NCBI GenBank assembly: GCA_038889235.1
Contig: JAWAHN010000001.1
Coordinates: forward strand, 995,636 to 1,027,635
Direction: 5' to 3'
Length of the DNA: 32,000 nt
From: Candidatus Jordarchaeales archaeon
Lineage (GTDB): Archaea > Asgardarchaeota > Jordiarchaeia > Jordiarchaeales > Freyrarchaeaceae
Position numbers and translations under genes: made by a program. The notes under the pieces were generated by a model. That model had not been told where the DNA came from. It saw nothing but the letters and a program-made list of their open reading frames with translations, and ran no database searches. Numbering within the stretch: the first letter of the stretch is position 1; each line of letters opens with the position of its first letter. Of this stretch, positions 288 to 31,406 are shown piece by piece.

Positions 288-451
288 CACCAAAAGTAGT
301 TTAACACTTTAGAGCTGCCGCCCCTGTTTTCGTCGCTTCCTTTTACTCCAGCTTTATGGGCTTAACATATTTAAAACCTTTCAGTTATTTTCCTTCAGTG
401 AAGTCGCAAATATGAAGATTAATTGAAGAAAGAAAAAGGAGGTTTTAGTAT

Positions 452-1044
452 ATGTCGAAAGAACTTATCTACAAAGTAATTCTCGCAGGGGACGGAGACG
501 GGCTGGTGTATTCCTCTAACTGAGACACCAACCCGCCGGAACTGTAGGAAAGACCAGTCTAATCTCTCAGTACATTAGTGGAAAATTCCAAGTCGAGTAC
601 AAGAAGACTATACATGGGTAGAATTACTACCCGTGGGTTAAAGGCATCGATATATTCTCGAAAATACTTAAGGTAGGTGACTCTGCAGTTAAACTAGTAA
701 TTTGGGACCTTGGAGGGCAACCTCACTTTAAACATGTCCGAAGTAGTTTCTATCAGGGCGCTATGGGCGCCATGCTTGTTTACGACATAACGCGCCGCTC
801 CACGTTCGAAAATTTAGAAAACTGGAGGAAAGAAATGCTGAAAAACACGAAAGAAGAACCAGTCACTATAGTTATAGGGAACAAAGTTGATCTTGCGCAC
901 TTGCGCGAAGTAAGAACAGAGGATGGAAAAAAATATGCCAAAGAGATAAACGCTCCTTTTTTTGAAACATCCGCAAAGGACGGCAAGAACGTTGAGGCCG
1001 CCTTTGAGACGTTAGTCAAAATGATCTTAGAAAGGAAAAAATGA
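452..1044 (+). CDS. Ras/Rab-like small GTPase, split into three exons by two BHB mini-introns (exons 452-497, 542-611, 642-1044; spliced 519 nt, 172 aa)
   Basis: ATG 452 lies 9 nt after GGAGG (438-442). The unspliced frame hits TGA 521-523, and the next frame hits TAG 619-621. The spliced product reads MSKELIYKVILAGDGAVGKTSLISQYISGKFQVEYKKTIGIDIFSKILKVGDSAVKLVIWDLGGQ... It carries G1 GDGAVGKT, G2 KKTIG, G3 WDLGGQ, G4 GNKVD and G5 ETSAK. The ORF track only shows the 3' exon tail (763-1044). Confidence 0.85.
498..541 (+). other. BHB-type intron 1 of the GTPase mRNA (44 nt), inside the P-loop codons
   Basis: Central helix: C493-G495 pairs with C536-G538, plus an A492/G539 mismatch. The 3-nt bulges are A496 G497 A498 and A540 A541 C542. 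Inner helix: C499-G502 pairs with C532-G535, then GGUGU 505-509 pairs with ACACC 525-529. Cutting after the 2nd bulge nucleotide joins GGA G|CU GUA, which reads G-A-V. The outer helix is weak, so this is a relaxed motif. Confidence 0.7.
612..641 (+). other. BHB-type intron 2 of the GTPase mRNA (30 nt), inside the switch I codons
   Basis: Central helix: G606 A607 C608 U609 pairs with G636 G637 U638 U639 (2 Watson-Crick plus 2 GU pairs). The bulges are A610 U611 A612 and A640 A641 A642. The inner 9-bp hairpin is CAUGGGUAG(613-621)/CUACCCGUG(627-635) with loop AAUUA. Cutting after the 2nd bulge nucleotide joins ACU AU|A GGC, which reads T-I-G. The intron contains the in-frame TAG at 619-621. Confidence 0.75.
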
Positions 1045-9920: not shown

Positions 9921-11105
9921 CTAGAAGCATCTGTGAATTACTCCTACGCCTCCCTCTTGATACTCTTTCTTTGTAACCCACATCTTCTGGAACGTCCTTA
10001 ACGAAGCTAATATTGATCCTCCGATCCAGACACTATATTGTCTCTCGGGCGGCGCAATTATCTTTATTTCAACATTTTCTGGAACTAGCTCTGATATCTC
10101 TTTGTGCAATCTTTCCTTTAAACCTGGAAACATTGTTGAGCCGCCTGAAAGGACTATGTTAGCGTATAACTCTCTTCTCAAGTCGATGTCGCACTTCTTA
10201 ATAGTCTCGACTATTGCTTCATCTAGCGGCGGTGCATCTAATCCGATAACTCCCGGGTTGAAGAAGACTTCTGGTGCTAGGAATCTCTCGGCACCAATAG
10301 TAATAGTTTCGCCATCAGGTAGTACGTATGTTTTTTCTATGCCTGAAACTTTCTCTGCAAGTTTGAGCTCCTTTTCAGGGTCCAATGCCACATAGCAGAG
10401 CTTTTCCTTAATGTCCCTGACTATTTCTCTTTCAGCTGTTGAAACGAAGCTGTAACCGCGTTGTCTTAGGAGCCTTCGCAAGTACTCAGTTATATCCCTC
10501 CCTGCAAGATCTATCCTGGTAATGGCGTGTGTTAACGCGAAACCTTCATAGATTGGAACTATGTGTGTTACTCCATCTCCCGAGTCTACCACTAGACCCG
10601 TTGTCCTTCCAGACGCATAGAGCGAGAGAACAGCTTGCATTGCAACATATATAGCCGGTGTATTAAATGTTTCAAACATTATTTCAGCCATTTTTTCCCT
10701 GTTTTCACGCGGGTTCAGCGGCGGCTCCGTTAGTAATACAGGGTGCTCTGAAGGGTCGACTCTCAAGTCGTTGAAGAACGTGTAGTGCCAGATTTTTTCC
10801 ATAGCATCCCAATCTGTAACTACACCATGCTCTATTGGGTAAACTAACCTGAGTACTCCTCGCAGGTTAAGTGCCTCCTCTCCAATGTAATATTCTCTCG
10901 TGTAGTGTTCTACGTCCGTCATTATTGACGCATACTTCGGATATCCTATACAAGTTGGCCATACGGAACGAGGCTGATCCTCCCCTGCAAACCCATTCTT
11001 AGTTAACCCTGTTCCATTGTCTATTACTATAGGTTTCGCAGCAATCATTTCTTCTTCGCGTGCCATTTTCTCATATCTCCTAACATTTTTTAAAGGTCTC
11101 TTCAT
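9921..11105 (-). CDS. eukaryote-like (Asgard-type) actin
   Basis: Actin signatures run throughout: [72 protein letters not shown] and a C-terminal IHRCF. A more likely start is the ATG at 11066 (MAREEE...), which is preceded by GGAG and gives 381 aa. Confidence 0.9.
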
Positions 11106-12043: not shown

Positions 12044-12835
12044 TTAAATTTTCCCATTTTTCTCCTTTCTTTGCCATTCTTCGATGCCTAGAGCTATTCT
12101 CCCCACTATCGTCGGGTCTTTCATGGCTGCTCGTGCAATAGAAACAGCGTCAGCACCTGCCTTTATCATTTCAATAGCACTCTCAACGTCCCTAATCGAA
12201 TTATTACCTATTAAAAAAACATTAACGCTTTTGGAAATCTTTCTAATTAAATCTAGGTCTCCACAATTCACTCCCTCCTTCATCGCGTCTACATGTATCG
12301 CGTCGACCCCTGCTTTTTCAGCAATTCTGGCAACATTCAAGTCGTCCACCACATTCCCTCTCCACTTAAGTATAACTTTTATATCGAAAGAGTCTTTTAG
12401 ACGTGTTATCCACTCAGAAAGCTCATCTAGCCTTTTCAAAAGAGCCTGTCCTGCACCTACTGCCATAATTTCAGGCTGGCGGCAATGTGCATCTATTTCC
12501 AACGCTACCGCGCCACTCTTTGACACCACTTCTCCTGCAAACATAATTCCCTCTAAACTTGTTGCACGTGCATTTACAGCGACAGGCGCCCCTCCCTCCA
12601 GCGCTCTTCTAACCTCCTTTATAAGAAAATCCTCAATCTCTTCTACTTCAACTTCGAACTCTGTTCGCCCCCTAAGCTTCACGGCCTTGCCAGCCATAAC
12701 CGTTTCTCGGTCAAAGTTCAAACCTCCTAGAGTTACCATTCCCGCCCCCGCTTTCGCGGCACGGAAACAAAATTCTCCGTCACATATTCCAGCCATCGCG
12801 GCAAGTATCGCCTTACGTTTCAGGACGTCTCTCAT
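12044..12835 (-). CDS. Dus-like / NifR3-related flavin-dependent TIM-barrel protein (archaeal type)
   Basis: 263 aa. Dus-like features: MAGICDGEF, IDAHCRQPE (Cys in the position of the Dus catalytic Cys context), HVDAM and IGNNSIRD...GADAVSIARAA. The start overlaps the cofD stop by ATGA (12832-12835). Confidence 0.7.
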   Translation of the reverse strand: MRDVLKRKAILAAMAGICDGEFCFRAAKAGAGMVTLGGLNFDRETVMAGKAVKLRGRTEFEVEVEEIEDFLIKEVRRALEGGAPVAVNARATSLEGIMFAGEVVSKSGAVALEIDAHCRQPEIMAVGAGQALLKRLDELSEWITRLKDSFDIKVILKWRGNVVDDLNVARIAEKAGVDAIHVDAMKEGVNCGDLDLIRKISKSVNVFLIGNNSIRDVESAIEMIKAGADAVSIARAAMKDPTIVGRIALGIEEWQRKEKNGKI

Positions 12836-13767
12836 TTTCCCCTCACCAAGCTCATTATTTCAGAGGCTAAACGTTGCATATCTCTTTCATCATTCATTAA
12901 CGTATCCGTGACGTATGGAATAACACCAATAGATCTTACTTTATCCACCAGCGAACTGTCAACTCTGTCGAAGACCAAGATTTCGGCCACATCTTTGTAA
13001 AATTGTGCCACACCAAGTGGGGAAACTTCAACACCTAGGCTTCGCATAAGCTTTGCCGCCGGCCCGCTTACAGCTTTCCCTCCCACTATAGGGCTAACTG
13101 CAATCTTCCTGCAGCGTACTCTCCTGATAGTTTCTCTAATTTCCTTGATAGAAAGTATTGGTGCTATACTTGTAACCGGGTTACTTGGTCCTATGATAAC
13201 TGCTTCCGCTCCTTTTAGTACATCAATAACCTCGCGAGGGGGCCTGGCTTTTTCCGCCCCTCTATATTCTACACCAAAAACCTCAGGTTGTCCCTTATAC
13301 TTAACCCAAAATTCTTGCAAGGAAAGGACGCCAAGGTTAGTGTTTATGTATGTTTGTACCTTGTCATTTGTCATAGGGAGAATTCTTACTCTGACATCAA
13401 GCTTGTCGCACATGATTTTTACTACTTCGGAAAGCTGAAGGCCGCATCTGAGAAGATGTGTCCTCCATATGTGCGTTGCCAAATCGCGATCTCCCAAAGC
13501 GAACCAGGTGGGTAAACCATATCTATGCATCATTTCGAGGCAATTGAAAGTGTCCCCCTTAATCCCCCAAAATTTTTCTTCGTCAAGAATACCCGCAACG
13601 AGGTAGACTGCGCTATCTAAATCCGGACTTATGTATAGACCATGAAGTTCAATATCGTCGCCAGTGTTCACTATGACTGAAATGTCTTCTTGCGGAAGAA
13701 CTTTAAGAAACCCTTTAAGCAGTTTTAGCCCACCAGTGCCTCCTGTTAATAATGCAATCAACGTCAC
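12832..13767 (-). CDS. cofD: 2-phospho-L-lactate transferase (F420 biosynthesis, CofD)
   Basis: 311 aa. Motifs LTGGTGGLKLL, VNTGDDIELHGLYISPDLD, IIGPSNPVTSI. Confidence 0.9.
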   Translation of the reverse strand: MTLIALLTGGTGGLKLLKGFLKVLPQEDISVIVNTGDDIELHGLYISPDLDSAVYLVAGILDEEKFWGIKGDTFNCLEMMHRYGLPTWFALGDRDLATHIWRTHLLRCGLQLSEVVKIMCDKLDVRVRILPMTNDKVQTYINTNLGVLSLQEFWVKYKGQPEVFGVEYRGAEKARPPREVIDVLKGAEAVIIGPSNPVTSIAPILSIKEIRETIRRVRCRKIAVSPIVGGKAVSGPAAKLMRSLGVEVSPLGVAQFYKDVAEILVFDRVDSSLVDKVRSIGVIPYVTDTLMNDERDMQRLASEIMSLVRGK

Positions 13768-13768
13768 G

Positions 13769-14527
13769 TCACCTGAAAAGGTCTCTTTCAGGCGGCATTA
13801 AAAGTTCTTTGTAACTTCCGTCACCTTTAATGTACTTGTATCCTCTTATTATTACTACGGGAATTCCTTCATCGGCTTGCCCCATGATTAGCTCGGCTGC
13901 TGAAGCTAACTCGTCCGCCACGGCGACTATTGTCGAACGCAAGACGTACCCATACAAATCCTTGTCTCCGCGCCTGTCCCAAAGCGGCTTAAGTCCCGCT
14001 ACTCCTATAGCTACGTTTACCACTCCCTCCCTGAAGGGTCTTCCAAACGTATCAGAGATTATAACAGCAACATCTGCCCCCGTGAGGTTGAAAATGCCCT
14101 CTCTAATGCGTCTTGCCGACTCGTCTGGGTCCAAAGGGAGAAGCGTGACTTTCCCCCCTCCGGATACATTTGACTCGTCTACCCCCGAATTCGCGCAAAC
14201 GAATCCGTGAAATGTTTCCGTAATAATTATGTGTCGCATCCTAACAACTTTTTTTGCCTCTCTCAGGATAACTTCAACCATTTGGGGGGACTTGCCGATT
14301 TGTTTGCTTACATTGATAGCGAAAGGTGAGGGTGTAACCTTCGACAAGTCTACAACTCGTCCCTCAGCCTTAGAAACTATCGATTGCGCCACAACGATGA
14401 CATCATTATCGAGTATTTTAACACCTTGCTTTTCCGCTGCTTCAACGATCAGCTTCGCTACGTCATCTCCTTCCTTCACAAGCGGTATACCTTTAATTCC
14501 TATTAATTCTATTTTAATTTGTACCAC
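13769..14527 (-). CDS. cofE: coenzyme F420-0:L-glutamate ligase (CofE)
   Basis: 252 aa. Motifs GIPLVKEGDDVAKLI, VVAQSIVSKAEGR, ANSGVDESN, SDTFGRPFREG. There is a 1-nt gap to the cofD start. Confidence 0.9.
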   Translation of the reverse strand: MVQIKIELIGIKGIPLVKEGDDVAKLIVEAAEKQGVKILDNDVIVVAQSIVSKAEGRVVDLSKVTPSPFAINVSKQIGKSPQMVEVILREAKKVVRMRHIIITETFHGFVCANSGVDESNVSGGGKVTLLPLDPDESARRIREGIFNLTGADVAVIISDTFGRPFREGVVNVAIGVAGLKPLWDRRGDKDLYGYVLRSTIVAVADELASAAELIMGQADEGIPVVIIRGYKYIKGDGSYKELLMPPERDLFR

Positions 14528-14610
14528 CCTCTTAAGCGCCTCTTCTGCTCTTAGATAGCATCACGTTTATCTTAATTCTTTTGAATTAGAGGAAGCGTGG
14601 AGGTCGTGCG

Positions 14611-15285
14611 ATGAACAATACATACTTGGTTATTCCTTTTAAAGGACTGGAAACTGCAAAATCGAGATTATCTCCCTTCCTTCCTCCTGATGCACGACAA
14701 AAACTAAGTCTTGCTATGTTACTTGACGTAATAACTGCCGCAAAGAAGTCTAAAATGTTCAAGAAAATTCTTATTGTGACAACAGACAGAAAATTTAAAG
14801 TTTCCTATAAAGGAGTCACCCTCATATTCGAGTCTCCTCCATATGATCTAAACAAAGCAGTTCAACTCGGAGTCGACTTTTGTTCTAAGCATGGCGCAAA
14901 AGCCGCTCTCATCCTACCCGCAGATTTACCACTTATAACGCCAAGCGATATAAAAAACATAATTAAGATGGGGGAGCCAGATGAGAAAGTTGTTGTTATT
15001 TCTCCGTCAGAGTCAAATGGGACTAACGCACTCTTCATGAAACCTCCCGGGATCATTCCCCCTTACTTTGGGGAGGACAGCTTCAACAAGCATATTTCTG
15101 CATCCAGAGAGCGAGGTGTATCAGTCAAAGTATATACCTCCCCGACAATTAAGACTGACATAGATTACATCAACACACTTTTAATAAACGCCCTTAATTT
15201 AGGTAAGAACACGAAGAAAGTAATTGATGTAATAAAAAACCATCTGAAAGTGGAAGGTAAAACCCTTCAACCATCCGCAATATAA
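14611..15285 (+). CDS. cofC: 2-phospho-L-lactate (or PEP) guanylyltransferase (CofC)
   Basis: 224 aa. Motifs IPFKGLETAKSRL, MLLDV, PADLPLITPSDI, GTNAL. Divergent from cofE. Confidence 0.8.
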   Translation: MNNTYLVIPFKGLETAKSRLSPFLPPDARQKLSLAMLLDVITAAKKSKMFKKILIVTTDRKFKVSYKGVTLIFESPPYDLNKAVQLGVDFCSKHGAKAALILPADLPLITPSDIKNIIKMGEPDEKVVVISPSESNGTNALFMKPPGIIPPYFGEDSFNKHISASRERGVSVKVYTSPTIKTDIDYINTLLINALNLGKNTKKVIDVIKNHLKVEGKTLQPSAI

Positions 15286-15323: not shown

Positions 15324-15749
15324 TTACTCTGCAAAAACCTCTTTGATCTCCTTCACCGCATCTTCTATTATTCGTTCATACCTTCTCTCTTTATGTAGAA
15401 GGACCGATGCTGCATCAGCAATCCTCCGTTTAGCTGAAATCGGTAGTATAGCTGCCAGTATAAACCTTTTATTTGAGACCTCTATACTTTTGAATACAAT
15501 AATCCCATCGCTTGTTTCTATAGTTACTTGTTCTAGGTCTCCAAGTCCTATCTGATCTTTAACTCTAATGGCAGTCGCGTGAGCTAGACCAGCCATCGCG
15601 GCGATTACCTGTTTACTTTCAGGACCGCTCGCCTCAGCAACCACTAGTCCATCCTCCCTAGAAATGACACTCGCTGAAAAACCCCCCTTTTTGTTCATGT
15701 CCTCTAAAATTTTTGTTAATGTCGAAAGCTTATCTTTAGACATCAACAC
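15324..15749 (-). CDS. Roadblock/LC7 (MglB-like) domain protein
   Basis: 141 aa. The pattern GGFSASVISREDGLVVAE...AAMAGLAHATA...IETSDGIIVFK...ILAAIL is typical of the Roadblock/LC7 fold. Confidence 0.75.
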   Translation of the reverse strand: MLMSKDKLSTLTKILEDMNKKGGFSASVISREDGLVVAEASGPESKQVIAAMAGLAHATAIRVKDQIGLGDLEQVTIETSDGIIVFKSIEVSNKRFILAAILPISAKRRIADAASVLLHKERRYERIIEDAVKEIKEVFAE

Positions 15750-15867: not shown

Positions 15868-16842
15868 TTGAAACTAAACTTTGTTATTCCTAAGGGCTCC
15901 CTTCAGGAAGCCACGCTGGCTTTGCTTAGACAGGCTGGATACGAGATAAAGGGAAGTGATAGGTCCTATAGGCCTTGGATAAACGACCCAGAAATAAACC
16001 TCAAAGTTCTCAGACCGCAAGAAATACCTACCTTCGTGGAATCAGGGGCTCATGACTTAGGAATCACCGGGATGGACTGGGTAGAAGAAACTTCAGCAGA
16101 CGTCGTAATATTGTCAAACCTAGCTTATGGTAAAGTAAAAATAGTTTTAGCTGTTCCAAACTACTGGACTCATATAAATTCCCTTTCAGATTTAATACGT
16201 ACCTTCGCTGAAAATGGAAAGCCTATACGTATAGCAACAGAATATATAAATATCACAGCTCGGTACGTATCATCAAACCCCGAATATAAATCACGTTTCG
16301 GCTCGCTAACCCCTGAGGTCATAACCCCCTGGTACAGATATGGAGAAAACCCTAACGTAAAAATACTGCTTTCCTTTGGCGCTACAGAGGCTAAGCCGCC
16401 TGAGGATGCGGAAGCAATAGTCGATAATACCGAAACCGGGACCACTATTCTCTCTAACAACCTTAAGATAATCGAAGAAATATGTGAATCTCAAGCGGTT
16501 CTCATATCTAACAGAGATGCTTTAAGCCACCCTTGGAAAAGAGAAAAGATAAAAGATGTAATGACTCTTCTCGAGGGTGCGGTTGACGCGAGAGAACGCT
16601 TGCACATATTTATGAATGTGAAGGAAGAAAACTTACAAGCGCTTTTGAAAATACTCCCCGCACTCAAAAAGCCGACAATATCTCCACTTGCTGGGGAAGA
16701 AGGATGGTACGCCATTAATACCGTTATTCGCAAAGATGAGTTTCTGAGAATAATACCGTACCTCAGGCAATTAGCGCAAGGACTAGTGGTTTACGAGCCG
16801 CGGCAAGTCCTCCCACTCGAAAAAATACAGAACAAGTTCTAA
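15868..16842 (+). CDS. hisG: ATP phosphoribosyltransferase
   Basis: 324 aa with a TTG start. Motifs IPKGSLQEATLALL, LRPQEIPTFVESGAHDLGITGMDWV, DNTETGTT. Confidence 0.9.
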   Translation: MKLNFVIPKGSLQEATLALLRQAGYEIKGSDRSYRPWINDPEINLKVLRPQEIPTFVESGAHDLGITGMDWVEETSADVVILSNLAYGKVKIVLAVPNYWTHINSLSDLIRTFAENGKPIRIATEYINITARYVSSNPEYKSRFGSLTPEVITPWYRYGENPNVKILLSFGATEAKPPEDAEAIVDNTETGTTILSNNLKIIEEICESQAVLISNRDALSHPWKREKIKDVMTLLEGAVDARERLHIFMNVKEENLQALLKILPALKKPTISPLAGEEGWYAINTVIRKDEFLRIIPYLRQLAQGLVVYEPRQVLPLEKIQNKF

Positions 16843-16912: not shown

Positions 16913-19585
16913 GTGTCTAGCGTGTCCTTGAGGTTTACCAAAAGAATCCACTCCATACGGTTTAGTGTGCTTTCTCCAGACGAAATAAGGCGTATGTCCG
17001 CTACACGAATAATTACGCCCGACACGTATGATGAGGACGGTACCCCCATAGAGACTGGACTTATGGACGAACGTTTGGGGACTGTAGAACCTGGGCGGCG
17101 TTGTAAGCTTTGCGGTAACCCCATAGGTGAATGTATCGGCCACTTCGGGCATATCGAACTCGTCCGCCCGGTGATACACGTAGGCTTTGTTAAAATTCTT
17201 CATAAAGTTCTAAGAGCTACATGCCGACGTTGTTGCAGACTTCTGCTTCCAGAGGAACAGATAAACGCCTTTTTAATAGAAATGGAAAAGTACGAGGCTG
17301 AAACCGGAGAATTAAGTGACGAAATAGCTGAAGAGGTATTCCGCCGCGCATCCAGAACCACGATATGCCCTCACTGCGGCGAAACCCAACGCAAAGTTAG
17401 GCTTGAAAAACCAACTACGTTTTATGAGGAAACAGAGACTGGATCGATAAGGCTCACGCCGAGTGATGTACGCGAACGGTGCGAACGTGTACCTGACACG
17501 GATTGCAAACTCCTCGGAATAAATCCAAAGTACGCCCGTCCTGAGTGGATGGTACTTACAGTTCTCCCCGTGCCACCGGTCTGTGTCAGACCAAGTATAA
17601 CCCTTGAATCAGGTGTTCGTTCAGAAGATGATTTAACTCATAAGCTCGTCGATATAATCAGGATAAATCAACGTTTAAGGGAGAACATAGAAGCGGGGGC
17701 TCCACAACTTATTGTTGAAGACTTATGGGAGTTGTTGCAATATCACGTAACCACTTACTTTGACAATGAAATCTCCGGCATACCTCCAGCCCGTCATCGT
17801 TCAGGAAGAGTTCTTAGAACTCTTTCCCAGAGATTGAAAGGCAAAGAAGGGCGTTTCAGGAGCAATTTATCCGGAAAACGCGTAGACTTCTCAGCTAGGA
17901 CGGTGATATCTCCTGACCCAAACATCGGGATTAATGAAGTAGGAGTGCCTATCGAGGTAGCTAAAATCCTGACCATACCCGAAAGGGTAACGGAACTCAA
18001 CATCGAAGAAATGAAAGAACTTGTTATGAGAGGACCTGACGAACACCCTGGAGCAAACTACATAATTAGAAGCGACGGGAAACGAATAGACTTGAGGTTT
18101 GTCAAAAACAGGCAAAAAGTCGCTGAAGAACTTACTCCCGGATGTATAGTTGAACGCCACCTTAACGACGGAGATATAGTACTTTTCAATAGACAACCGT
18201 CCCTCCACAGAATGAGTATCATGGCACATGAAGTTAGAGTTATGCCCTACAAGACGTTTAGGTTAAACCTCTGTGTGTGTCCACCTTACAATGCCGACTT
18301 TGATGGGGACGAGATGAACCTCCACGTACCGCAATCAGAGGAAGCTAGAGTAGAAGCATACGTACTTATGAGAGTTCAAGAACATATCCTAAGCCCACGT
18401 TACGGAGGTCCAATCATAGGAGGGCTCCAGGACTTCATTACATCTGCATACCTTTTAACCAGAAAACAGACATTACTCACTAAAGAAGAAGCTTGTGAAC
18501 TCGCTCTAGCTGCTGGAATAACCGAGCTTCCTCCACCAGCAGTAACAGAACCAGTTCCTCTTTGGACTGGAAAACAAATTTTCAGTTTGACCCTACCTAA
18601 GGGGCTTACTGCACGTTTCAAATCAAAGCTGTGCAAACACTGTGATACATGCCGCAAGGATGAGTGTCCTCACGATGCATACGTGGTAGTTATCGACGGA
18701 GTTCTTCAGAAGGGTGTCATAGACAAAGCGGCTTTCGGGGCAGGCGTCCCCGAAAGTCTTCTTCACAAAATAGCAAGAGATTTCGGCACCGATGCTGCAA
18801 GGCAATTCCTAGATTCAGTAACACGAATGTTAATCAGGTACATTACGAACAAGGGCTTCACCTTAGGTCTAGATGACATGGAAATACCTGAAGAAGCGGT
18901 TCAACGCATAAACGAAATACTAGAGGAAGGAGAGCGCAGAGTTAACGAACTAATAGAGACCTACAGGAGAGGCGAGCTTGAAGCTTTACCGGGACGTACC
19001 ATAGAAGAAAGTCTTGAAATGTTAATTATGCAAGAACTCAACAATGTTAGAGACAAAGCTGGTGAAATCGCCAGCGAATATCTAGGTCCAAACAACCATG
19101 CAGTAATAATGGCGTTGACAGGTGCACGCGGCACCATGCTTAACCTTGCAATGATGGCTGCATGTGTAGGGCAACAATCAGTTAGAGGGCAACGTATACA
19201 TAGAGGATATCGAGGAAGAACTTTACCACACTTCAAAAAAGGCGACCTGAGCGCTAAATCAAGAGGCTTTGTAGCTTCCCACTACAGGAAAGGATTAGAC
19301 CCAATAGAGTTCTTCTTCCACGCGATGGGTGGACGAGAGGGCTTGGTAGACACTGCAGTAAAAACGTCGCAATCCGGATACCTACAACGCAGGCTCATTA
19401 ACGCTCTTCAAGATGTAAAGGTCGAATATGACGGCACGGTAAGAGACTCCACAGGTCGTATCATACAATTCAAATACGGAGAAGACTTAGTTGACCCAAC
19501 TAAAAGTTGGTATGGTAAAGCAGTCAACATTGACACAATAATTGATGAATACATATTGCAGCATTCTAAATTATCCAAAAAATGA
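16913..19585 (+). CDS. rpoA1: DNA-directed RNA polymerase subunit A' (Rpo1N)
   Basis: 890 aa. Motifs CKLCGNPIGECIGHFGHIEL, NRQPSLHRMS and the catalytic YNADFDGDEMNLH. The length and end point are typical of the archaeal A'/A'' split. In-frame GTG starts occur at 16913 and 16922. Confidence 0.95.
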   Translation: MSSVSLRFTKRIHSIRFSVLSPDEIRRMSATRIITPDTYDEDGTPIETGLMDERLGTVEPGRRCKLCGNPIGECIGHFGHIELVRPVIHVGFVKILHKVLRATCRRCCRLLLPEEQINAFLIEMEKYEAETGELSDEIAEEVFRRASRTTICPHCGETQRKVRLEKPTTFYEETETGSIRLTPSDVRERCERVPDTDCKLLGINPKYARPEWMVLTVLPVPPVCVRPSITLESGVRSEDDLTHKLVDIIRINQRLRENIEAGAPQLIVEDLWELLQYHVTTYFDNEISGIPPARHRSGRVLRTLSQRLKGKEGRFRSNLSGKRVDFSARTVISPDPNIGINEVGVPIEVAKILTIPERVTELNIEEMKELVMRGPDEHPGANYIIRSDGKRIDLRFVKNRQKVAEELTPGCIVERHLNDGDIVLFNRQPSLHRMSIMAHEVRVMPYKTFRLNLCVCPPYNADFDGDEMNLHVPQSEEARVEAYVLMRVQEHILSPRYGGPIIGGLQDFITSAYLLTRKQTLLTKEEACELALAAGITELPPPAVTEPVPLWTGKQIFSLTLPKGLTARFKSKLCKHCDTCRKDECPHDAYVVVIDGVLQKGVIDKAAFGAGVPESLLHKIARDFGTDAARQFLDSVTRMLIRYITNKGFTLGLDDMEIPEEAVQRINEILEEGERRVNELIETYRRGELEALPGRTIEESLEMLIMQELNNVRDKAGEIASEYLGPNNHAVIMALTGARGTMLNLAMMAACVGQQSVRGQRIHRGYRGRTLPHFKKGDLSAKSRGFVASHYRKGLDPIEFFFHAMGGREGLVDTAVKTSQSGYLQRRLINALQDVKVEYDGTVRDSTGRIIQFKYGEDLVDPTKSWYGKAVNIDTIIDEYILQHSKLSKK

Positions 19586-19657: not shown

Positions 19658-20554
19658 CTATCTTAGCTCTTTTTCAAGGGCCTGAGCTATTAGGGGGGCT
19701 ACGCTAACCTGACTTACTGGGCTAGGAATAGTATCTGTGGCGATTACGTGTTCTGCTCCCGCTTTGTATATTTTCTTTAACGCGTTATCAACAAGAATAG
19801 CGTGCGTGCAAGCAGCGATTATTGTTTTGGCATGCATATTTTTGAGTAACTGAATTGTTTTTACAAGGGTCCCTCCTGTTGAAATTATGTCATCCACTAT
19901 GATAACATCTCTTCCTTGGACTTGAAGCTGGCGTACGCCTATTTCTACTTCCGTCGAACTTATCCTCTTTTTCTCTAGAACATCGTAATCCGTGCAGAGT
20001 ACTGACGCCACAACTTTTGCCCACTGTTCAGATTCTTCATCGGGCCCTATTACAAGAGGCTCTTCCATTTTGAAGTTCTTCATTATGTATTGTGCCAGCA
20101 GGGGCATAGCGGTAAGGTTCTCAGCGGGTATCTTAAATATCTCACTTACGCTCCCTACTCGGTGCAAGTGCATATCTATCGTTATAACTTTATCTGTTCC
20201 TGTCTTCTCAATAAGAGAAGCTACTGTTTTGAGACTTAATGCCTCCCCCTTGTTAAACCGTTGGTCCTGCCTCGAGTAAGGAAAATATGGTATCACACTC
20301 AATATTCTTTTAGCTCCTAAGTCCCTTAAAGCATCCACTAGGAGGAAGTACTCTATGAGGTGTTCGTCAGGGGTATGGTGCATCGAATGTATTACTGCAA
20401 CATGATACCCTTCGACGTCACCTTCCACCCTAACGTATTTTTCTCCGTCGGGAAATTTCTTGTAGTCGCAATCTATGAATGGCGCCTGAAGCATTTTTGC
20501 GACCTTAAGCGCTAAGACCTGTGATGTAGAGCCTCCCACTATTGCAAGCTTCAT
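19658..20554 (-). CDS. prs: ribose-phosphate pyrophosphokinase
   Basis: 298 aa. Motifs KFPDGEKYVRV and YFPYSRQD, plus the PRPP loop VIIVDDIISTGGTL. Confidence 0.9.
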   Translation of the reverse strand: MKLAIVGGSTSQVLALKVAKMLQAPFIDCDYKKFPDGEKYVRVEGDVEGYHVAVIHSMHHTPDEHLIEYFLLVDALRDLGAKRILSVIPYFPYSRQDQRFNKGEALSLKTVASLIEKTGTDKVITIDMHLHRVGSVSEIFKIPAENLTAMPLLAQYIMKNFKMEEPLVIGPDEESEQWAKVVASVLCTDYDVLEKKRISSTEVEIGVRQLQVQGRDVIIVDDIISTGGTLVKTIQLLKNMHAKTIIAACTHAILVDNALKKIYKAGAEHVIATDTIPSPVSQVSVAPLIAQALEKELR

Positions 20555-23254: not shown

Positions 23255-24523
23255 TTAGACCGAAATTTTCGCTGAAAACGGTTCTCCAAGCAGTTTTTCT
23301 GAAGCTTTAGCGACAACTTCTCTATACTTTTCGTCCGTGTAAACTCTTATAATATTCAAAAATCCCTTCATTACTGACACTATGTTCGACACATCTTCTA
23401 ACCGTAGTACCCTCTTTCTTCCGTCCTTCCCTCTTTGAACTATCGGCAAGTTTGCAGCGTCCTCATCCATAGTCCTGTGGTAGGGAACCGACGGCAAAGT
23501 CGGCACATCTATATAAACGTTTTCCACGTCAACGCCGGCTTCCTCCGCTATTTCCTCTTCAAGCCGTCTTTTAATCGCTTCTTTGGTCATAATTGCTGAA
23601 AAAACTCCGTTCCTCACGAAAAATATCTTTTCATAGGACACTTTTGGTAAATCTCGCATCTTGAGCCTCTCGATGTAAGGCTTAGATCCTTTACATTGAA
23701 GCATAAGCCCCCACACAGAGTAGTCATCATAGTTTAAGTACTCCTGAGGGCTCACCTTTACTATGTTTATCTCCTCATTAACTTTCTCCAGTCCTTTTTC
23801 CAAAAGAATTTGGGCAGCTCTAGACGCTTTATGAAAGTATATGCTCCTAAAAAGCTCAACCCTGGCCACAAGGAAGGATTCTAAAGTTGGTAGCGCCACT
23901 AAGTCTACCGCTAGATTTCCTTCGTGAAGGTCTATGGTGTGTATTAAGCGAAAGACGTCAATGGAGGCGAACTCTCCCCCAGTGTGGTAGGAGTCTCTCA
24001 GAATATAGTCGAGCTTGTCGCAATCAATCGAGCTAGAAATTATTTGACTTAAAAACTCTTTATGCTTCTTCTGTAGTTTACCTACGGCTAGAAGTGCTAC
24101 GTCTTTAGCGTTTAATCCAATCGACTCTACAGCGTCTTTGAGTGAAGTTTGCGTAATTATTTCCATAGTAATGTCTTCATGTGTCTTTTTAAGGTGCCTA
24201 ATAAGCAGCGCTTCAAACACATGGCTGAATGGACCATGCCCCACATCGTGAAGCAGCCCAGCTATTTTAATCATTTCTACAGCGTCGCTTTCTAAATACC
24301 CCTTACTCACTAAGGACTCGGCCATTAAATTTGAAAGGTGCATTACACCGAGGGAGTGTTCAAACCGTGTATGGACTCCCGCAGGGTAAACAAATTCGCT
24401 TCCAGCTAACTGCCTTATTCTACGCAATCTTTGGACAGCTTCTGTATCTATCACCTTTACTTCTTCGAAATCGCATTGAATGTAACCATAAATGGGATCT
24501 TTGATCAGGATTTTTTTCTTCAC
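23255..24523 (-). CDS. HD-domain phosphohydrolase, SAMHD1/EF1143-like (COG1078; putative dNTP triphosphohydrolase)
   Basis: 422 aa. Motifs RFEHSLGV, LLHDVGHGPFSH, DCDKLDYILRDSYHTG. Confidence 0.85.
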   Translation of the reverse strand: MKKKILIKDPIYGYIQCDFEEVKVIDTEAVQRLRRIRQLAGSEFVYPAGVHTRFEHSLGVMHLSNLMAESLVSKGYLESDAVEMIKIAGLLHDVGHGPFSHVFEALLIRHLKKTHEDITMEIITQTSLKDAVESIGLNAKDVALLAVGKLQKKHKEFLSQIISSSIDCDKLDYILRDSYHTGGEFASIDVFRLIHTIDLHEGNLAVDLVALPTLESFLVARVELFRSIYFHKASRAAQILLEKGLEKVNEEINIVKVSPQEYLNYDDYSVWGLMLQCKGSKPYIERLKMRDLPKVSYEKIFFVRNGVFSAIMTKEAIKRRLEEEIAEEAGVDVENVYIDVPTLPSVPYHRTMDEDAANLPIVQRGKDGRKRVLRLEDVSNIVSVMKGFLNIIRVYTDEKYREVVAKASEKLLGEPFSAKISV

Positions 24524-25827
24524 TCCCCTTTCTCTCCCCTATTCTTTCTAAAAATTTTTTCACATACTTTTTTGACATCTTCTACATATCTTTTTTCCGC
24601 GAAAACATAAACCTGCATCAGACTATTATACCTCGCTTTCAAGGTTTGAACTAAATTAGGGTCGTATTCCTCAAGTCCCCGCCCTCCTGCCCTCACCTCG
24701 CTCACTTCGGTGTAGTAATCTCGTGGTAGGTATATGAAAACATCTATTTCTGATATGTCAACATCGTGCTGAAGCTTCCTTACTTCCATAATTATTTCGT
24801 TTCGCAGCTCATGATAGTCGACCATCCCGAGGGCGGCTCTAGAAACTTTTTCTGGAAATTCGCTTATGTGTGCGGCATATGCTTTTTTGGGAATTCTACG
24901 GTATCTCAATCTGTATGCTAGCTTTCTAGCCTCCTCCACACTGCTATTTGCAAGCATATTTATGAACTGGTTGTCGTCGAGAAAAAATAGGTGATAGAAG
25001 TCATAATCTCCAAGCCCCTTTAGCAAGAGCTCTAATGCTAGACAACTGGCCGCCAGAGTGGTATGATGCAAGTAAACCTTTTTCATCATCCAGAAACGGC
25101 TTTCCAGAACGCTTATCGCTGCCCCTATAGCGTCAGTCCTGTTTTTTAATGCAAGCCTTCCATCCCCGTCTATTTCAAAAGAGGAGAAAATCCGGTCGTC
25201 ATAACTTTGAGGAACCCCTGTGTAGTAAGCATCTCTTTTCAAGTAGTCGAGTCGGTCAGCATCCAGCGGACCATTCACTAATTGGCTCAAGTATCTTGGC
25301 TTTCCCTCTCCCATTATTATTTCTACAATGCGGCTTCTGTCTCTCTTACCATACCCTTCTTCCTCCAAAACCTCTCTTAATGGTATTGCCGCATCCATTA
25401 TCTCTGGGTTCTCCTTCTGAAATTTCTTATAGCAAACTCCCTCAACTATTTCGCTAACAAATTTCTCATGCGGTGGTATTATGTTTGGATAAAACCTGCG
25501 AAAGAAGTCGGACACTACGTGGCTGAAAACAGGTGTTGCCACATCGTGAAGTAGCGCGGCAAGCCTTACAAATCTAACTTCTTCGTCGTCTAGTGGTATT
25601 TTTGACATCGAAATTATCTTATCGACGCACGCTCGTACGCCGAGGCTGTGCTGAAACCTTGAATGTTCTGCCCCTGGGTAAACTAAGAATGCGAAGTCAA
25701 GCTGCTTAATTCCTCTTAATCTTTGCAATTCGAACGTATCTAGGATCTTCTTGTCAGTGGAAGTTAGGAAAATATCACCCCAAACAGAGTCCCTTACTTT
25801 CCATTCTTCTGTGCGCAAAAACTTCAC
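24520..25827 (-). CDS. HD-domain phosphohydrolase paralog (COG1078) with a divergent metal-site neighbourhood
   Basis: 435 aa with a GTG start. Motifs RFQHSLGV, LLHDVATPVFSH (GHGPFSH replaced) and DADRLDYLKRDAYYTG. The stop overlaps the start of the downstream HD gene (ATGA-type, 24520-24523). Confidence 0.85.
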   Translation of the reverse strand: MKFLRTEEWKVRDSVWGDIFLTSTDKKILDTFELQRLRGIKQLDFAFLVYPGAEHSRFQHSLGVRACVDKIISMSKIPLDDEEVRFVRLAALLHDVATPVFSHVVSDFFRRFYPNIIPPHEKFVSEIVEGVCYKKFQKENPEIMDAAIPLREVLEEEGYGKRDRSRIVEIIMGEGKPRYLSQLVNGPLDADRLDYLKRDAYYTGVPQSYDDRIFSSFEIDGDGRLALKNRTDAIGAAISVLESRFWMMKKVYLHHTTLAASCLALELLLKGLGDYDFYHLFFLDDNQFINMLANSSVEEARKLAYRLRYRRIPKKAYAAHISEFPEKVSRAALGMVDYHELRNEIIMEVRKLQHDVDISEIDVFIYLPRDYYTEVSEVRAGGRGLEEYDPNLVQTLKARYNSLMQVYVFAEKRYVEDVKKVCEKIFRKNRGEKGE

Positions 25828-28550: not shown

Positions 28551-29759
28551 CTACTCGACATGTACTCTTAAGAGATCTACGTCGCCGGGTTCTCCCGGAA
28601 TCCGCCTCTTGAGTATTTCAAGGAACTCTCTAACCGACCTTTTGATATCTTTAGACTGCGTGATGTACCTTCCAACTATGAGTATGTGCGCTCCAGCATC
28701 TAATGCTTCGTCGGCATTTTCTGGAACAATGCCTCCTGCCACGGCAAAAAGCATTTTTTGCCCCTCAAAGGTCTTCTTAATCTCTTTTATCAGCTCCCAC
28801 CTAGATCTCCTTCCGGACGACTCTGTATCGATTGCTCTGTGAATTATTACAACATCAGGGAGTTCTTTCAGCGACTTCAATTTCTCAATAGGGTCTGGGA
28901 CATCCATCATATCTAGGAAAGCATAAATTCCAAGTCGTCTCGCTTCATAGATGAACTTATCAATGGATTCCTTAGATGCGAGCCCAGAAGCAACTACTCC
29001 ATCAGCAGTCTCCTCATATGCTAGGTCGACTTCTACCTGTGCAGTGTCTAAAGTTTTCAGGTCAGCTACTATAAACATGTCTGGAACTACTTCTCTAAGT
29101 TTGCCGATAACGCTTACACCATGCCTCTTTATCAGCGGAGTGCCTGCCTCGAGTATTATCATATCACTCTTCGGTATTTCACTTACTACACGAATAGCCT
29201 GCTCCAATGACGGATTATCGAGTGCTATCTGCAAGTATGGAGGCCGCCATAGTCGAGGAACCTTAAAGCCCATTATTGGGTGCACCGCCCTATCTTTATC
29301 ATACATTATCTTCTCTAGCGGCGGATATCCTTGCAAGGCTCGTCTTAAAGCAAGCTTTGTAGCACTATAATTGTAGTGGTATATCTTCCTGTAATCCTTT
29401 GCTTCCGGGTGAACGAAAACGCTTGCTATTATCACCCATTCATCTGCCTTATCCGCTGGAATAATCCCTTCCTCTACAGCGTCCGCTATAGCTTTAGCCA
29501 CAGCAGACTGCGCTGGACCGAATATCTTGTTCGCCTGTTCCATGTTTTTAATAGTGACTTTCGGGATGATCAATACGTGCGGTTTTGGTGGTAGATTAGG
29601 TCTAATCACCCCTAGAAGCGGCGTGTGTCCCTGGGACATATGGGTTAAACCTTGGGCAAACGCTACTCCAACTGGGCCAAACTTGTCCCCTATGATTAGA
29701 TCAATGTGCGCTACCTCCGCACCTTTGCCAACCAACGCCTCACCTATGTAAAACTCCAT
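28551..29759 (-). CDS. fae-hps: bifunctional formaldehyde-activating enzyme / 3-hexulose-6-phosphate synthase
   Basis: 402 aa. The N-terminal Fae domain reads [19 protein letters not shown]...GHTPLL. The C-terminal Hps/OMPDC-fold domain has [21 protein letters not shown] and IVGRYIT. Confidence 0.9.
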
Positions 29760-29790: not shown

Positions 29791-30738
29791 TCAATCTACT
29801 GATTTAAACCTTCTGAGCATGAACTTTTCTCCCTTTAGTTGTCGCATCTTTTTACTTACTAATATTCTTGCAACTTTTCCACTCCACTTTTCATGAGCTA
29901 TGTCAACACTTTCTTCAGTTAAAATGAGATCAATATACTCGATCTGTTGCCTTACAGCTTGTTCAAGAACATCGTCTGCTATGTTATTAACTCCCTTAAT
30001 TATACCATAAACTAGCAACTGTTCTAGGGGTGAACGCCAATAGTGGTAAGAATAAGAAACTTTAACTTTCCACCTATTTAGCACTTTTCTTAGAAACCTA
30101 GTATTAATGCTGTGCGTTATCACAACAGGTTCACGGTAATTCGTAAGTAAAGTTAACAGTTTCTCATAGCTTTCCCACACCTTGTTTCCCTCACTAAGAT
30201 AAGCGTTAAGTAGTTGCTTCCACTCGTTTAAAAAGAGCTTACCGGTAGCTTTGCACTTAAATTCGAGAAGCAGCTGTTTTTCTGAAAGAGCAGCGCTTTC
30301 TATATGCTTTGTTACATCGTGATAACAGTACACGTCAAACTTCATTAACTTATATTTTACCTTTAACGCGTTTAAAATTGGTGAAAAAACCTTCCCTAGG
30401 TAACGAGTCGCAGGTTCACTTGCACCCGTAAGTTCCATATATTCTTTCCACAGCTCTCCCTCCTCAACTAATTCTAATAAGACGCACCGTGTGGTTTCAC
30501 TCAACTCCTCTGGTAATGGAATGAAAAGAGCGTCGAACTCTTTACTCAAAATGTACTCTCCCGCACGCCTGCCCGCCTCCACGAATCTCGGGACATGGAG
30601 AAGTATCACACTTCCCATCGTGTCATCTGTTTTAAATGTACTTTTCATATGCTCTCTCCTCTCACTTACCATATGTGCTCTTTTCCGCGCTTGCAAGTGT
30701 CTTTTATCTCTGGAAGGCGTGTCTCTTGGCCGCAACAT
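29791..30738 (-). CDS. hypothetical protein
   Basis: 315-aa ORF with a basic, low-complexity N-terminus, so the true start is more likely M31 (30648) or M41 (30618). No recognisable motifs. Confidence 0.55.
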   Translation of the reverse strand: MLRPRDTPSRDKRHLQARKRAHMVSERREHMKSTFKTDDTMGSVILLHVPRFVEAGRRAGEYILSKEFDALFIPLPEELSETTRCVLLELVEEGELWKEYMELTGASEPATRYLGKVFSPILNALKVKYKLMKFDVYCYHDVTKHIESAALSEKQLLLEFKCKATGKLFLNEWKQLLNAYLSEGNKVWESYEKLLTLLTNYREPVVITHSINTRFLRKVLNRWKVKVSYSYHYWRSPLEQLLVYGIIKGVNNIADDVLEQAVRQQIEYIDLILTEESVDIAHEKWSGKVARILVSKKMRQLKGEKFMLRRFKSVD

Positions 30739-31406
30739 TTACCAAAGGAAAAAGAGGGAAAAAGGAAATAAAAGCGTCATGGCTACATGTGTATGAATAC
30801 ATATTAACTTATGGTGGTGTTCCTGTTTTGGCTCCCGATGTAAAGAAGGTTCACAGGTTTGGCGTCGAAGACGATTTAGACGCATCCTTTCTTCATGAGA
30901 AATTTGACGAACTAGAAGAGATAACAGTTTTAGAGTTAGAAAAACTGGCTGATGTTTTACATCTCCTTTTGGATTTAGAACCTTACACATGTCCAGTAAG
31001 AGGTGTAGATACTCCTTGCATTCTATGCGAAGAGAAATGCAGCGCTGCCAATTACCAAGAGATCGAAACTAAACTCGGAAAGGGGCGGAAAACGATCAAC
31101 AGCTCCACGTTCTTTCTCGCCTTTGAGAAACATGACGAGGTTGAAAAGTTTCTAATTAGAAAGTTAGCACGGGAGTTATCCAAGAAAAAACTTAATGTAA
31201 TTGACCCAGAAGAAGGGTATGATATCGGCTTTCTCTTTACACATGAAGATAGGTGGAGAATGGAAGAAATTGTATCCTTTGTGGTGAAACTGTTTGAAAA
31301 AGTGAGAGTTTTGCTGCCTGAAGCAAAGTCCCTCCTCAACTCCTGGGTGAGAAAGAAAGTAGAAGAGATGGAGCGCGAAGAAATGTTAAAGAAAGGGAAG
31401 CACTGA
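30636..31406 (+). CDS. hypothetical protein with a Cys cluster (CPVRGVDTPCILCEEKC)
   Basis: 256-aa ORF from ATG 30636. Its first ~50 aa are hydrophobic and overlap the divergent ORF. An alternative GTG start at 30789 gives 205 aa. The C-terminal region is charged and helical. Confidence 0.5.
   Translation: MYFSYALSSHLPYVLFSALASVFYLWKACLLAATFTKGKRGKKEIKASWLHVYEYILTYGGVPVLAPDVKKVHRFGVEDDLDASFLHEKFDELEEITVLELEKLADVLHLLLDLEPYTCPVRGVDTPCILCEEKCSAANYQEIETKLGKGRKTINSSTFFLAFEKHDEVEKFLIRKLARELSKKKLNVIDPEEGYDIGFLFTHEDRWRMEEIVSFVVKLFEKVRVLLPEAKSLLNSWVRKKVEEMEREEMLKKGKH

Follow-up and report, generated by a model that had tools for sequence, protein, structure and literature searches.

A Rab-like GTPase gene of a Jordarchaeales archaeon probably expressed through the removal of two bulge-helix-bulge introns

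How could an archaeon make a small GTPase from a gene that is written in three different reading frames? The question is raised by positions 452-1044 (+) of a 32,000-nucleotide (nt) stretch of DNA from a Candidatus Jordarchaeales archaeon (assembly GCA_038889235.1, contig JAWAHN010000001.1, positions 995,636 to 1,027,635 of the forward strand), the whole of which we refer to as the window. The frame opened by the ATG at 452 (+), which has a GGAGG 9 nt to its 5' side at 438-442, encodes MSKELIYKVILAGDG and then hits a TGA at 521-523 when the RNA is left unspliced. A second frame encodes ...VGKTSLISQYISGKFQVEYKKTI and ends at a TAG at 619-621, and a third holds the remainder of a Ras-like domain up to the TGA at 1042-1044. 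An initial annotation of this DNA had pointed to both premature stops and had claimed that a Ras/Rab-like GTPase becomes readable after removal of 498-541 and 612-641, with junctions that restore the frame, the G1 motif GDGAVGKT and the switch-I motif KKTIG. All of this is found in the sequence. Excising 498-541 (44 nt) and 612-641 (30 nt) from 452-1044 (+) gives a 519-nt open reading frame (ORF) for a protein of 172 amino acids (aa), which matches the Pfam family Ras (PF00071) at E=2.2e-54 over profile positions 1-161 of 162. We conclude that the locus is very likely one functional Rab-like small GTPase gene, whose coding sequence is interrupted by two bulge-helix-bulge (BHB) introns that are removed by splicing. 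Its parts are as follows.

438..442 (+): Shine-Dalgarno-like GGAGG, read from the sequence
452..497 (+): exon 1 (46 nt), M1 to G15 plus the first nt of the Ala16 codon
498..541 (+): intron 1 (44 nt), phase 1, inside the P-loop Ala16 codon
542..611 (+): exon 2 (70 nt), rest of the Ala16 codon to the second nt of the Ile39 codon; holds the P-loop GKT and the switch-I Thr38
612..641 (+): intron 2 (30 nt), phase 2, inside the Ile39 codon beside the switch-I Thr38
642..1044 (+): exon 3, third nt of the Ile39 codon to the stop TGA at 1042-1044; holds WDLGGQ, GNKVD and ETSAK

The spliced protein carries five G motifs: G1 GDGAVGKT, switch-I KKTIG with T38, G3 WDLGGQ, G4 GNKVD and G5 ETSAK. Both junctions fall within codons, that of Ala16 (G/CU, the slash marking the junction) and that of Ile39 (AU/A), and it is across these that GDGAVGKT and KKTIG are rebuilt. 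In the alignment with uninterrupted Asgard paralogs and plant RabA proteins the spliced protein is free of gaps at the junctions, and the residues at or beside the rebuilt junctions (A16, T38 and G40) are invariant across the family. Residues 3-172 align, again with no gap at the junctions, with the Thorarchaeota Rab of PDB entry 7EZB at E=3.6e-46, and the match to Rab11A has E ~1e-42. A C-terminal Cys prenylation motif is absent, the protein ending in KMILERKK whereas the plant RabA proteins in the same alignment end in GCCRS, and for this reason the GTPase should be called Rab-like.

To what extent the inserts behave as introns can be read from their distribution and lengths in nine distinct DNA variants that make up one syntenic ortholog group.

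Window: intron 1, 44 nt; intron 2, 30 nt
L005: intron 1, 44 nt; intron 2, 30 nt
L001: intron 1, 54 nt; intron 2, 31 nt
L031: intron 1, 54 nt; intron 2, 31 nt
L042: intron 1, 53 nt; intron 2, 31 nt
L007: intron 1, 52 nt; intron 2, 30 nt
L010: intron 1, 55 nt; intron 2, 30 nt
L041: intron 1, 55 nt; intron 2, 31 nt
L003: intron 1 absent; intron 2, 32 nt

Removal of the introns gives a full-length protein of 171-175 aa in every lineage, and in the alignment of ortholog DNA an upstream GGAGG or GGGGG is kept before the ATG or TTG start in all orthologs. None of the nine variants lacks intron 2, whose length is 30-32 nt. Intron 1 (44-55 nt) is found in seven of the eight main types and is missing only from the L003 type, which also includes L004, L006 and L034. 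Through the site of the missing intron this lineage reads GGT GAT GGT GCC GTG GGA AAA ACT, which translates to GDGAVGKT with GCC as the Ala codon, exactly the product predicted from the intron-1 junction of the window. The presence/absence polymorphism thus gives the exact position of the intron-1 junction, and the expectation of the initial annotation that an ortholog would read through this motif uninterrupted is borne out in this lineage. Intron lengths vary modulo 3, and each length that is a multiple of 3 carries an in-frame stop. Because the lengths are unconserved modulo 3 and in-frame stops are present, the inserts cannot be translated, which disposes of the possibility, also considered in the initial annotation, that orthologs decode them as protein.

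The RNA structures were taken from RNAfold minimum free energy (MFE) and centroid folds, with z-scores from shuffles, and both introns are relaxed HBh'-type BHB motifs. For intron 2 the MFE and centroid folds are the same (z = -3.9) and none of 200 shuffles was as stable. Its central helix pairs 606-609 with 636-639 (GACU/GGUU), with two G·U among the four pairs; the bulges are 3 nt each (A610 U611 A612 and A640 A641 A642), and a 9-bp inner hairpin (613-621/627-635, loop 622-626) stacks on the central helix without a gap. With cutting after the second nucleotide of each bulge, the cleavage sites lie between 611 and 612 and between 641 and 642. In intron 1 (z = -2.6) the inner helix consists of 499-502/532-535 and 504-509/525-530, topped by an apical stem at 514-516/522-524. 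The bulges lie at 496-498 (A496 G497 A498), which is clean, and at 540-542, and the central helix is made of three Watson-Crick pairs (C493 G494 G495/C536 C537 G538) plus an A492·G539 apposition. The cut between 541 and 542 obeys the rule of the second bulge nucleotide only when A492·G539 is counted as a fourth pair. An outer helix of intron 1 is weak (485-488/542-545), with three of its four pairs invariant and one broken in three of seven sequences. The BHB geometry described in the initial annotation, a 4-bp central helix with 3-nt bulges, is therefore exact for intron 2, where MFE and centroid folds both return it, while the "4-bp helix" of intron 1 was too generous and has to be read as three Watson-Crick pairs plus A·G.

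Further support for these structures is provided by covariation among the orthologs, where the intron loops diverge while the helices keep pairing through compensatory changes. For intron 2, 98.3% of cells are paired, compared with 27-49% when the partners are slid, and four of the nine inner pairs have changed on both sides; its central helix is 100% paired in the nine variants, including changes from G·U to G-C and from U·G to C-G. The inner helix of intron 1 is 96.6% paired with six of nine pairs changed on both sides, and slid-partner controls for both introns give 23-52% pairing. In the central helix of intron 1, neither the three Watson-Crick pairs nor the A·G shows any variation. When folded one by one, the homologs from L001, L003, L007 and L010 all adopt the same core.

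The exon nucleotides next to the introns are constrained as well. Exon 1 supplies, with its 3' end (492-497), the exonic strand of the central helix of intron 1 as well as two bulge nucleotides, and the codons here are GAC GGA in seven of seven carriers of intron 1 versus GAT GGT in the intron-less lineage. Likewise, the Thr38 codon is restricted to ACU or ACC, both of which pair with G636. In the window and in L001, L003, L005, L007, L010, L041 and L042, the exonic parts of the central helices (492-497 and 606-611) are invariant at synonymous sites, and elsewhere such sites are near saturation. These frozen codons suggest selection on exon nucleotides for recognition of the introns.

Over the first 38 codons (exons 1 and 2) the proportion of nonsynonymous differences (pN) is 0-0.12 versus 0.5-0.96 for synonymous differences (pS), and the ratio of nonsynonymous to synonymous substitution rates (dN/dS) in the frames predicted by splicing is ~0.02-0.08. 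In these two exons the window differs from L005 by 12 synonymous and 0 nonsynonymous changes. Exon 3 shows the same pattern. The purifying selection on exons 1 and 2 indicates that the small upstream exons are translated in the predicted frames.

How, then, would the protein be made? We propose that the gene is transcribed into a precursor messenger RNA (pre-mRNA) that would be untranslatable past codon 23. The 3' end of each intron would pair with the last nucleotides of the upstream exon to form a 4-position central helix with two 3-nt bulges, stacked on the intron hairpin, and the splicing endonuclease EndA would cut after the second bulge nucleotide (between 497 and 498, 541 and 542, 611 and 612, and 641 and 642). 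An RtcB-type ligase would join the three exons, the 44-nt and 30-nt introns being probably circularised, and the mature mRNA would encode the 172-aa GTPase with its Ala16 (G/CU) and Ile39 (AU/A) codons rebuilt across the junctions. The protein can probably be made only after these enzymes of transfer RNA (tRNA) splicing have acted in vivo. Asgard archaea have an (alpha-beta)2 EndA with an L1 loop and a broad specificity that tolerates relaxed motifs (PMC5829648), and in complete Freyarchaeia and Atabeyarchaeia genomes introns occur in 92-95% of tRNA genes; a gene often has more than one, and non-canonical positions are frequent (PMC11291895). By analogy with these reports the host lineage fits a splicing model. 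Within the window neither an EndA nor an RtcB gene is present, and a search with ARAGORN turned up no tRNA genes there or in 19 loci.

Several observations weigh against this account. In an exact look-up none of six spliced protein sequences (0/6) was found among ~15 billion public proteins, and no assembled spliced transcript or annotation backs the junctions. Intron 2 has the relaxed HBh' form, without an outer exon-exon helix. The motif of intron 1 is relaxed and non-canonical, with its three Watson-Crick pairs and conserved A·G in the central helix, and its MFE fold sets the 3' bulge one nt away from the required cut. In addition, BHB-like shapes are common by chance: the two strands of the window hold 7 strict BHB motifs compared with ~9.4 in shuffled windows, and relaxed motifs number ~120 in shuffled windows. 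A motif that sits exactly at a frame-restoring boundary arises at a rate of ~2e-6 (strict) or 2.8e-5 (relaxed) per combination of site and length, and chance as the source of the motifs at the required boundaries is excluded. Of the matches of a generic BHB scan in the window, 612-641 is the only one whose removal also recovers a long ORF that matches a protein family. A strict BHB candidate at 29475-29509 (-), 35 nt long with a 12-bp inner helix, was rejected, as the ORF that contains it is an unbroken Fae-Hps fusion (Fae profile positions 1-159 of 159); this false positive shows that the BHB shape alone is no evidence of an intron.

The annotation record of the locus is what might be expected of a decaying pseudogene, or of a gene truncated to the product of an internal ATG at 763, that acquired two hairpin insertions resembling miniature inverted-repeat transposable elements. 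The NCBI record (L043, GCA_038821275.1) has no protein called between LysE and 2-Hacid_dh, other public gene calls (L001, L003 and L044 were examined) consist of 93-149-aa fragments or of a pair of 41 aa and 144 aa, and no spliced protein is on record. A decaying gene, however, is difficult to reconcile with insert positions that are shared by nine diverged variants, close to saturation at synonymous sites and nevertheless with a dN/dS of ~0.02-0.08 in exons 1 and 2, or with a conserved start codon and ribosome-binding site, and the product starting at Met105 would be without G1-G3. Nor is a multi-copy mobile hairpin element supported: a BLAST search with both introns found no further copies in the window or the loci compared; a 12-nt intron match in L035 was the stop region of a proteasome alpha gene. 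We regard a pseudogene or truncated gene as highly improbable. It may be noted that inventories of Asgard small GTPases may be undercounted because gene calls of this kind miss the gene.

Programmed translational bypassing, as in phage T4 gene 60, would have the ribosome hop over the insert between matched codons with the help of a hairpin. For intron 1 such codons are at hand: GGA at 494-496 and GGA at 538-540 are matched, lie exactly 44 nt apart so that the frame is kept, enclose a stable hairpin, and would give GDG-TVGKT. The match, however, follows from the palindromic CCGG of the central helix, and no stop codon follows the take-off codon. Bypassing would also place Thr at residue 16 in the window and in L010 (A541), where the family has Ala without exception and the intron-less ortholog has it too. 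Intron 2 is without a take-off/landing pair that restores KKTIGID, its sole GGG...GGG pair landing out of frame. Bypassing would also have no use for the bulges that are arranged with two-fold symmetry at both inserts, and we consider it a very unlikely explanation.

Splicing by EndA may also be set against removal of the inserts by some other RNA route, such as self-splicing or an unknown nuclease, with the likeness to a BHB motif being incidental. It is true that intron 1 departs from the canonical motif and that the role of EndA is one we infer. Inserts of 30-55 nt are, however, far too small for group I or group II ribozymes, and Rfam gave no matches in the window. The parts that are invariant correspond to the helix and bulge positions read by EndA, everything else covarying or drifting, and the host clade is rich in tRNA introns of the EndA type (PMC11291895). 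There is thus little probability in our view that another route is used. A sequencing or assembly artefact, suspected only on the general ground that these are metagenome-assembled genome data and named in the initial annotation as a possible refutation, has a negligible probability, given that 900 nt across the Rab locus show 0 mismatches in three independent assemblies (GCA_038821275.1, from Candidatus Jordarchaeales, GCA_038834185.1 and Logan SRR27730019) and that homologous inserts occur in >10 contigs from various samples and pipelines.

Splicing of a conserved gene remains our preferred reading of the locus. The ortholog contigs share with the window the gene order LysE, Rab, 2-Hacid_dh, AsnC (on the minus strand) and hydrolase, as seen in NCBI, JGI, ENA and Logan data. 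The neighbouring 2-hydroxyacid dehydrogenase of the window matches a 'Candidatus Jordarchaeales archaeon' protein at 100% identity, and the closest database proteins of the GTPase are all N-terminally truncated (94-149 aa) and labelled Jordarchaeales or Freyarchaeota. The guess of an Asgard-like genome made in the initial annotation was correct, as these Jordarchaeales/Freyarchaeota relatives show. The window also encodes an actin homolog, a Roadblock/LC7 protein and an ARPC4-like domain, which are typical Asgard signature proteins.

9921-11105 (-): actin homolog, Pfam Actin E=1e-139
15324-15749 (-): Roadblock/LC7 protein
30636-31406 (+): 256-aa ORF whose C-terminal half matches ARPC4 (profile positions 66-162 of 167, E=2.9e-7)

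The start of the 256-aa ARPC4-like ORF is uncertain because it overlaps an opposite-strand ORF (29791-30738) by ~100 nt. Elsewhere in the window, a gene for RNA polymerase subunit A' (16913-19585, +; Rpb1 domains 1-5) lies between hisG (15868-16842) and an opposite-strand gene for phosphoribosyl pyrophosphate synthase (19658-20554); it is not beside rpoB or rpoA'', an order that is unusual for an archaeon. An F420 biosynthesis cluster (Dus-like, cofD, cofE/F420 ligase and cofC) and two tandem HD-domain (HD_assoc_2) paralogs occupy 12044-15285 and 23255-25827. No further N-terminally truncated or split gene came up when the window's remaining 30 ORFs were compared with Pfam.

Outside the ortholog group, the closest uninterrupted homologs are tandem Rab paralogs located beside creatininase and RibD_C genes, found in L036 (Freyarchaeum deiterrae CP147778.1), L038 and L040. 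Three uninterrupted homologs (P0002, P0014 and P0018; 61-66% identity) had been considered as intron-less orthologs and were rejected, being paralogs in this other context (Rab-Rab-creatininase-RibD_C); the intron-bearing gene is an ortholog group separate from the tandem paralogs. Adjacent HEAT-repeat genes in L036, looked at as a possible split gene, are divided by an ordinary gene boundary. A DNA-pattern scan of metagenomes returned four true loci and one chance match (L033). The matches listed by a scan of GTDB genomes with a protein pattern were all distant paralogs or bacterial GTPases.

Is an intron of this kind new? The initial annotation had stated that introns cut by the splicing endonuclease in archaeal mRNAs are essentially limited to cbf5, and this is backed by a 2020 report that, apart from its own case in a Haloferax 5' untranslated region (UTR), cbf5 was the only mRNA BHB intron reported (PMC7714728). 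In full-text searches of the literature on Asgard archaea, Jordarchaeia or Freyarchaeia together with BHB or mRNA introns, we found no such protein-coding intron reported. The mechanism is known already; what is new is the gene family, the phylum and the presence of two introns in one coding sequence. With cbf5 having stood as the sole coding-sequence case for >20 years (PMC7714728), the Asgard Rab-like gene would be a second, unrelated gene, suggesting that, wherever there is an EndA of broad specificity, BHB introns are able to enter mRNAs and stay there. It would also offer a testable system for the spread of introns from tRNA genes to mRNAs, and it illustrates how genes of this kind are cut short or lost, without any warning, when Asgard genomes are annotated automatically. 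More speculatively, BHB introns may have colonised coding genes more widely in Jordarchaeia/Freyarchaeia, a lineage with introns in >90% of its tRNA genes, this gene being the first example to come to light; or EndA/RtcB activity may serve as a switch that controls a GTPase of membrane trafficking, much as in HAC1/XBP1 splicing. We think this rather unlikely. Were colonisation the case, protein expression in an Asgard clade would regularly rely on the machinery of tRNA splicing, and under either reading the archaeal relatives of eukaryotes would offer a living example of mRNA introns spliced by protein enzymes.

Among known proteins, the spliced product resembles the Thorarchaeota Rab 7EZB and eukaryotic Rab11/RabA in having all G motifs and differs from them in being a Rab-like protein without a C-terminal Cys motif. 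We know of no introns described in the Thorarchaeota Rab 7EZB gene, nor of such introns in Rab11/RabA genes. In human RAS genes an exon boundary follows codon 37, near but not at the position of intron 2.

As RNA elements, the two introns are like the tRNA introns of Freyarchaeia/Atabeyarchaeia (PMC11291895) and of Thermoproteales in their presumed enzymes, their size range and their relaxed motifs off the canonical 37/38 context, and the former group also shares the host clade. They differ in that PMC11291895 reports tRNA introns only, whereas here the host RNA is an mRNA in which splicing must restore the reading frame. Haloferax volcanii HVO_1309 provides another mRNA that is processed by EndA at a BHB motif (PMC7714728), as we presume for the Rab-like gene. 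In contrast to the latter, the HVO_1309 intron lies in the 5' UTR and interrupts no codons, and the H. volcanii enzyme is a strict alpha'2 (PMC7714728). A more distant likeness is to HAC1/XBP1, where IRE1 and a tRNA ligase or RtcB act: there too a small coding intron is removed by a structure-specific endonuclease and a tRNA-type ligase, with a frame change that leads to the active protein. HAC1/XBP1 splicing, however, uses another nuclease, a twin stem-loop motif and stress regulation.

The closest parallel is cbf5. The cbf5 introns of Crenarchaeota have relaxed BHB motifs, are cut between bulge nucleotides 2 and 3, lie within the codon of the catalytic Asp and have been gained or lost among lineages (Watanabe 2002; Yokobori 2009, PMC2738675). 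The introns described here are likewise short BHB introns within a coding sequence, in codons of critical residues and, for intron 1, with presence/absence polymorphism, and they share the relaxed motif that would need a hetero-oligomeric EndA and the predicted cut between bulge nucleotides 2 and 3. Unlike cbf5, which encodes an RNA-modification enzyme (a pseudouridine synthase) and has one intron in Thermoproteota, the present gene encodes a Rab-like eukaryotic-signature GTPase and carries two introns in one coding sequence of an Asgard lineage (Jordarchaeales/Freyarchaeota). Splicing of cbf5 was demonstrated by cDNA and in vitro cleavage, whereas that of the Jordarchaeales gene is deduced. 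Both introns of the Rab-like gene hit codons in its most conserved catalytic motifs, the P-loop Ala16 and the Ile39 beside the switch-I Thr38, in parallel to the catalytic Asp codon of cbf5. That intron sites lie in catalytic motifs of both Rab and cbf5 hints at a common rule for intron survival.

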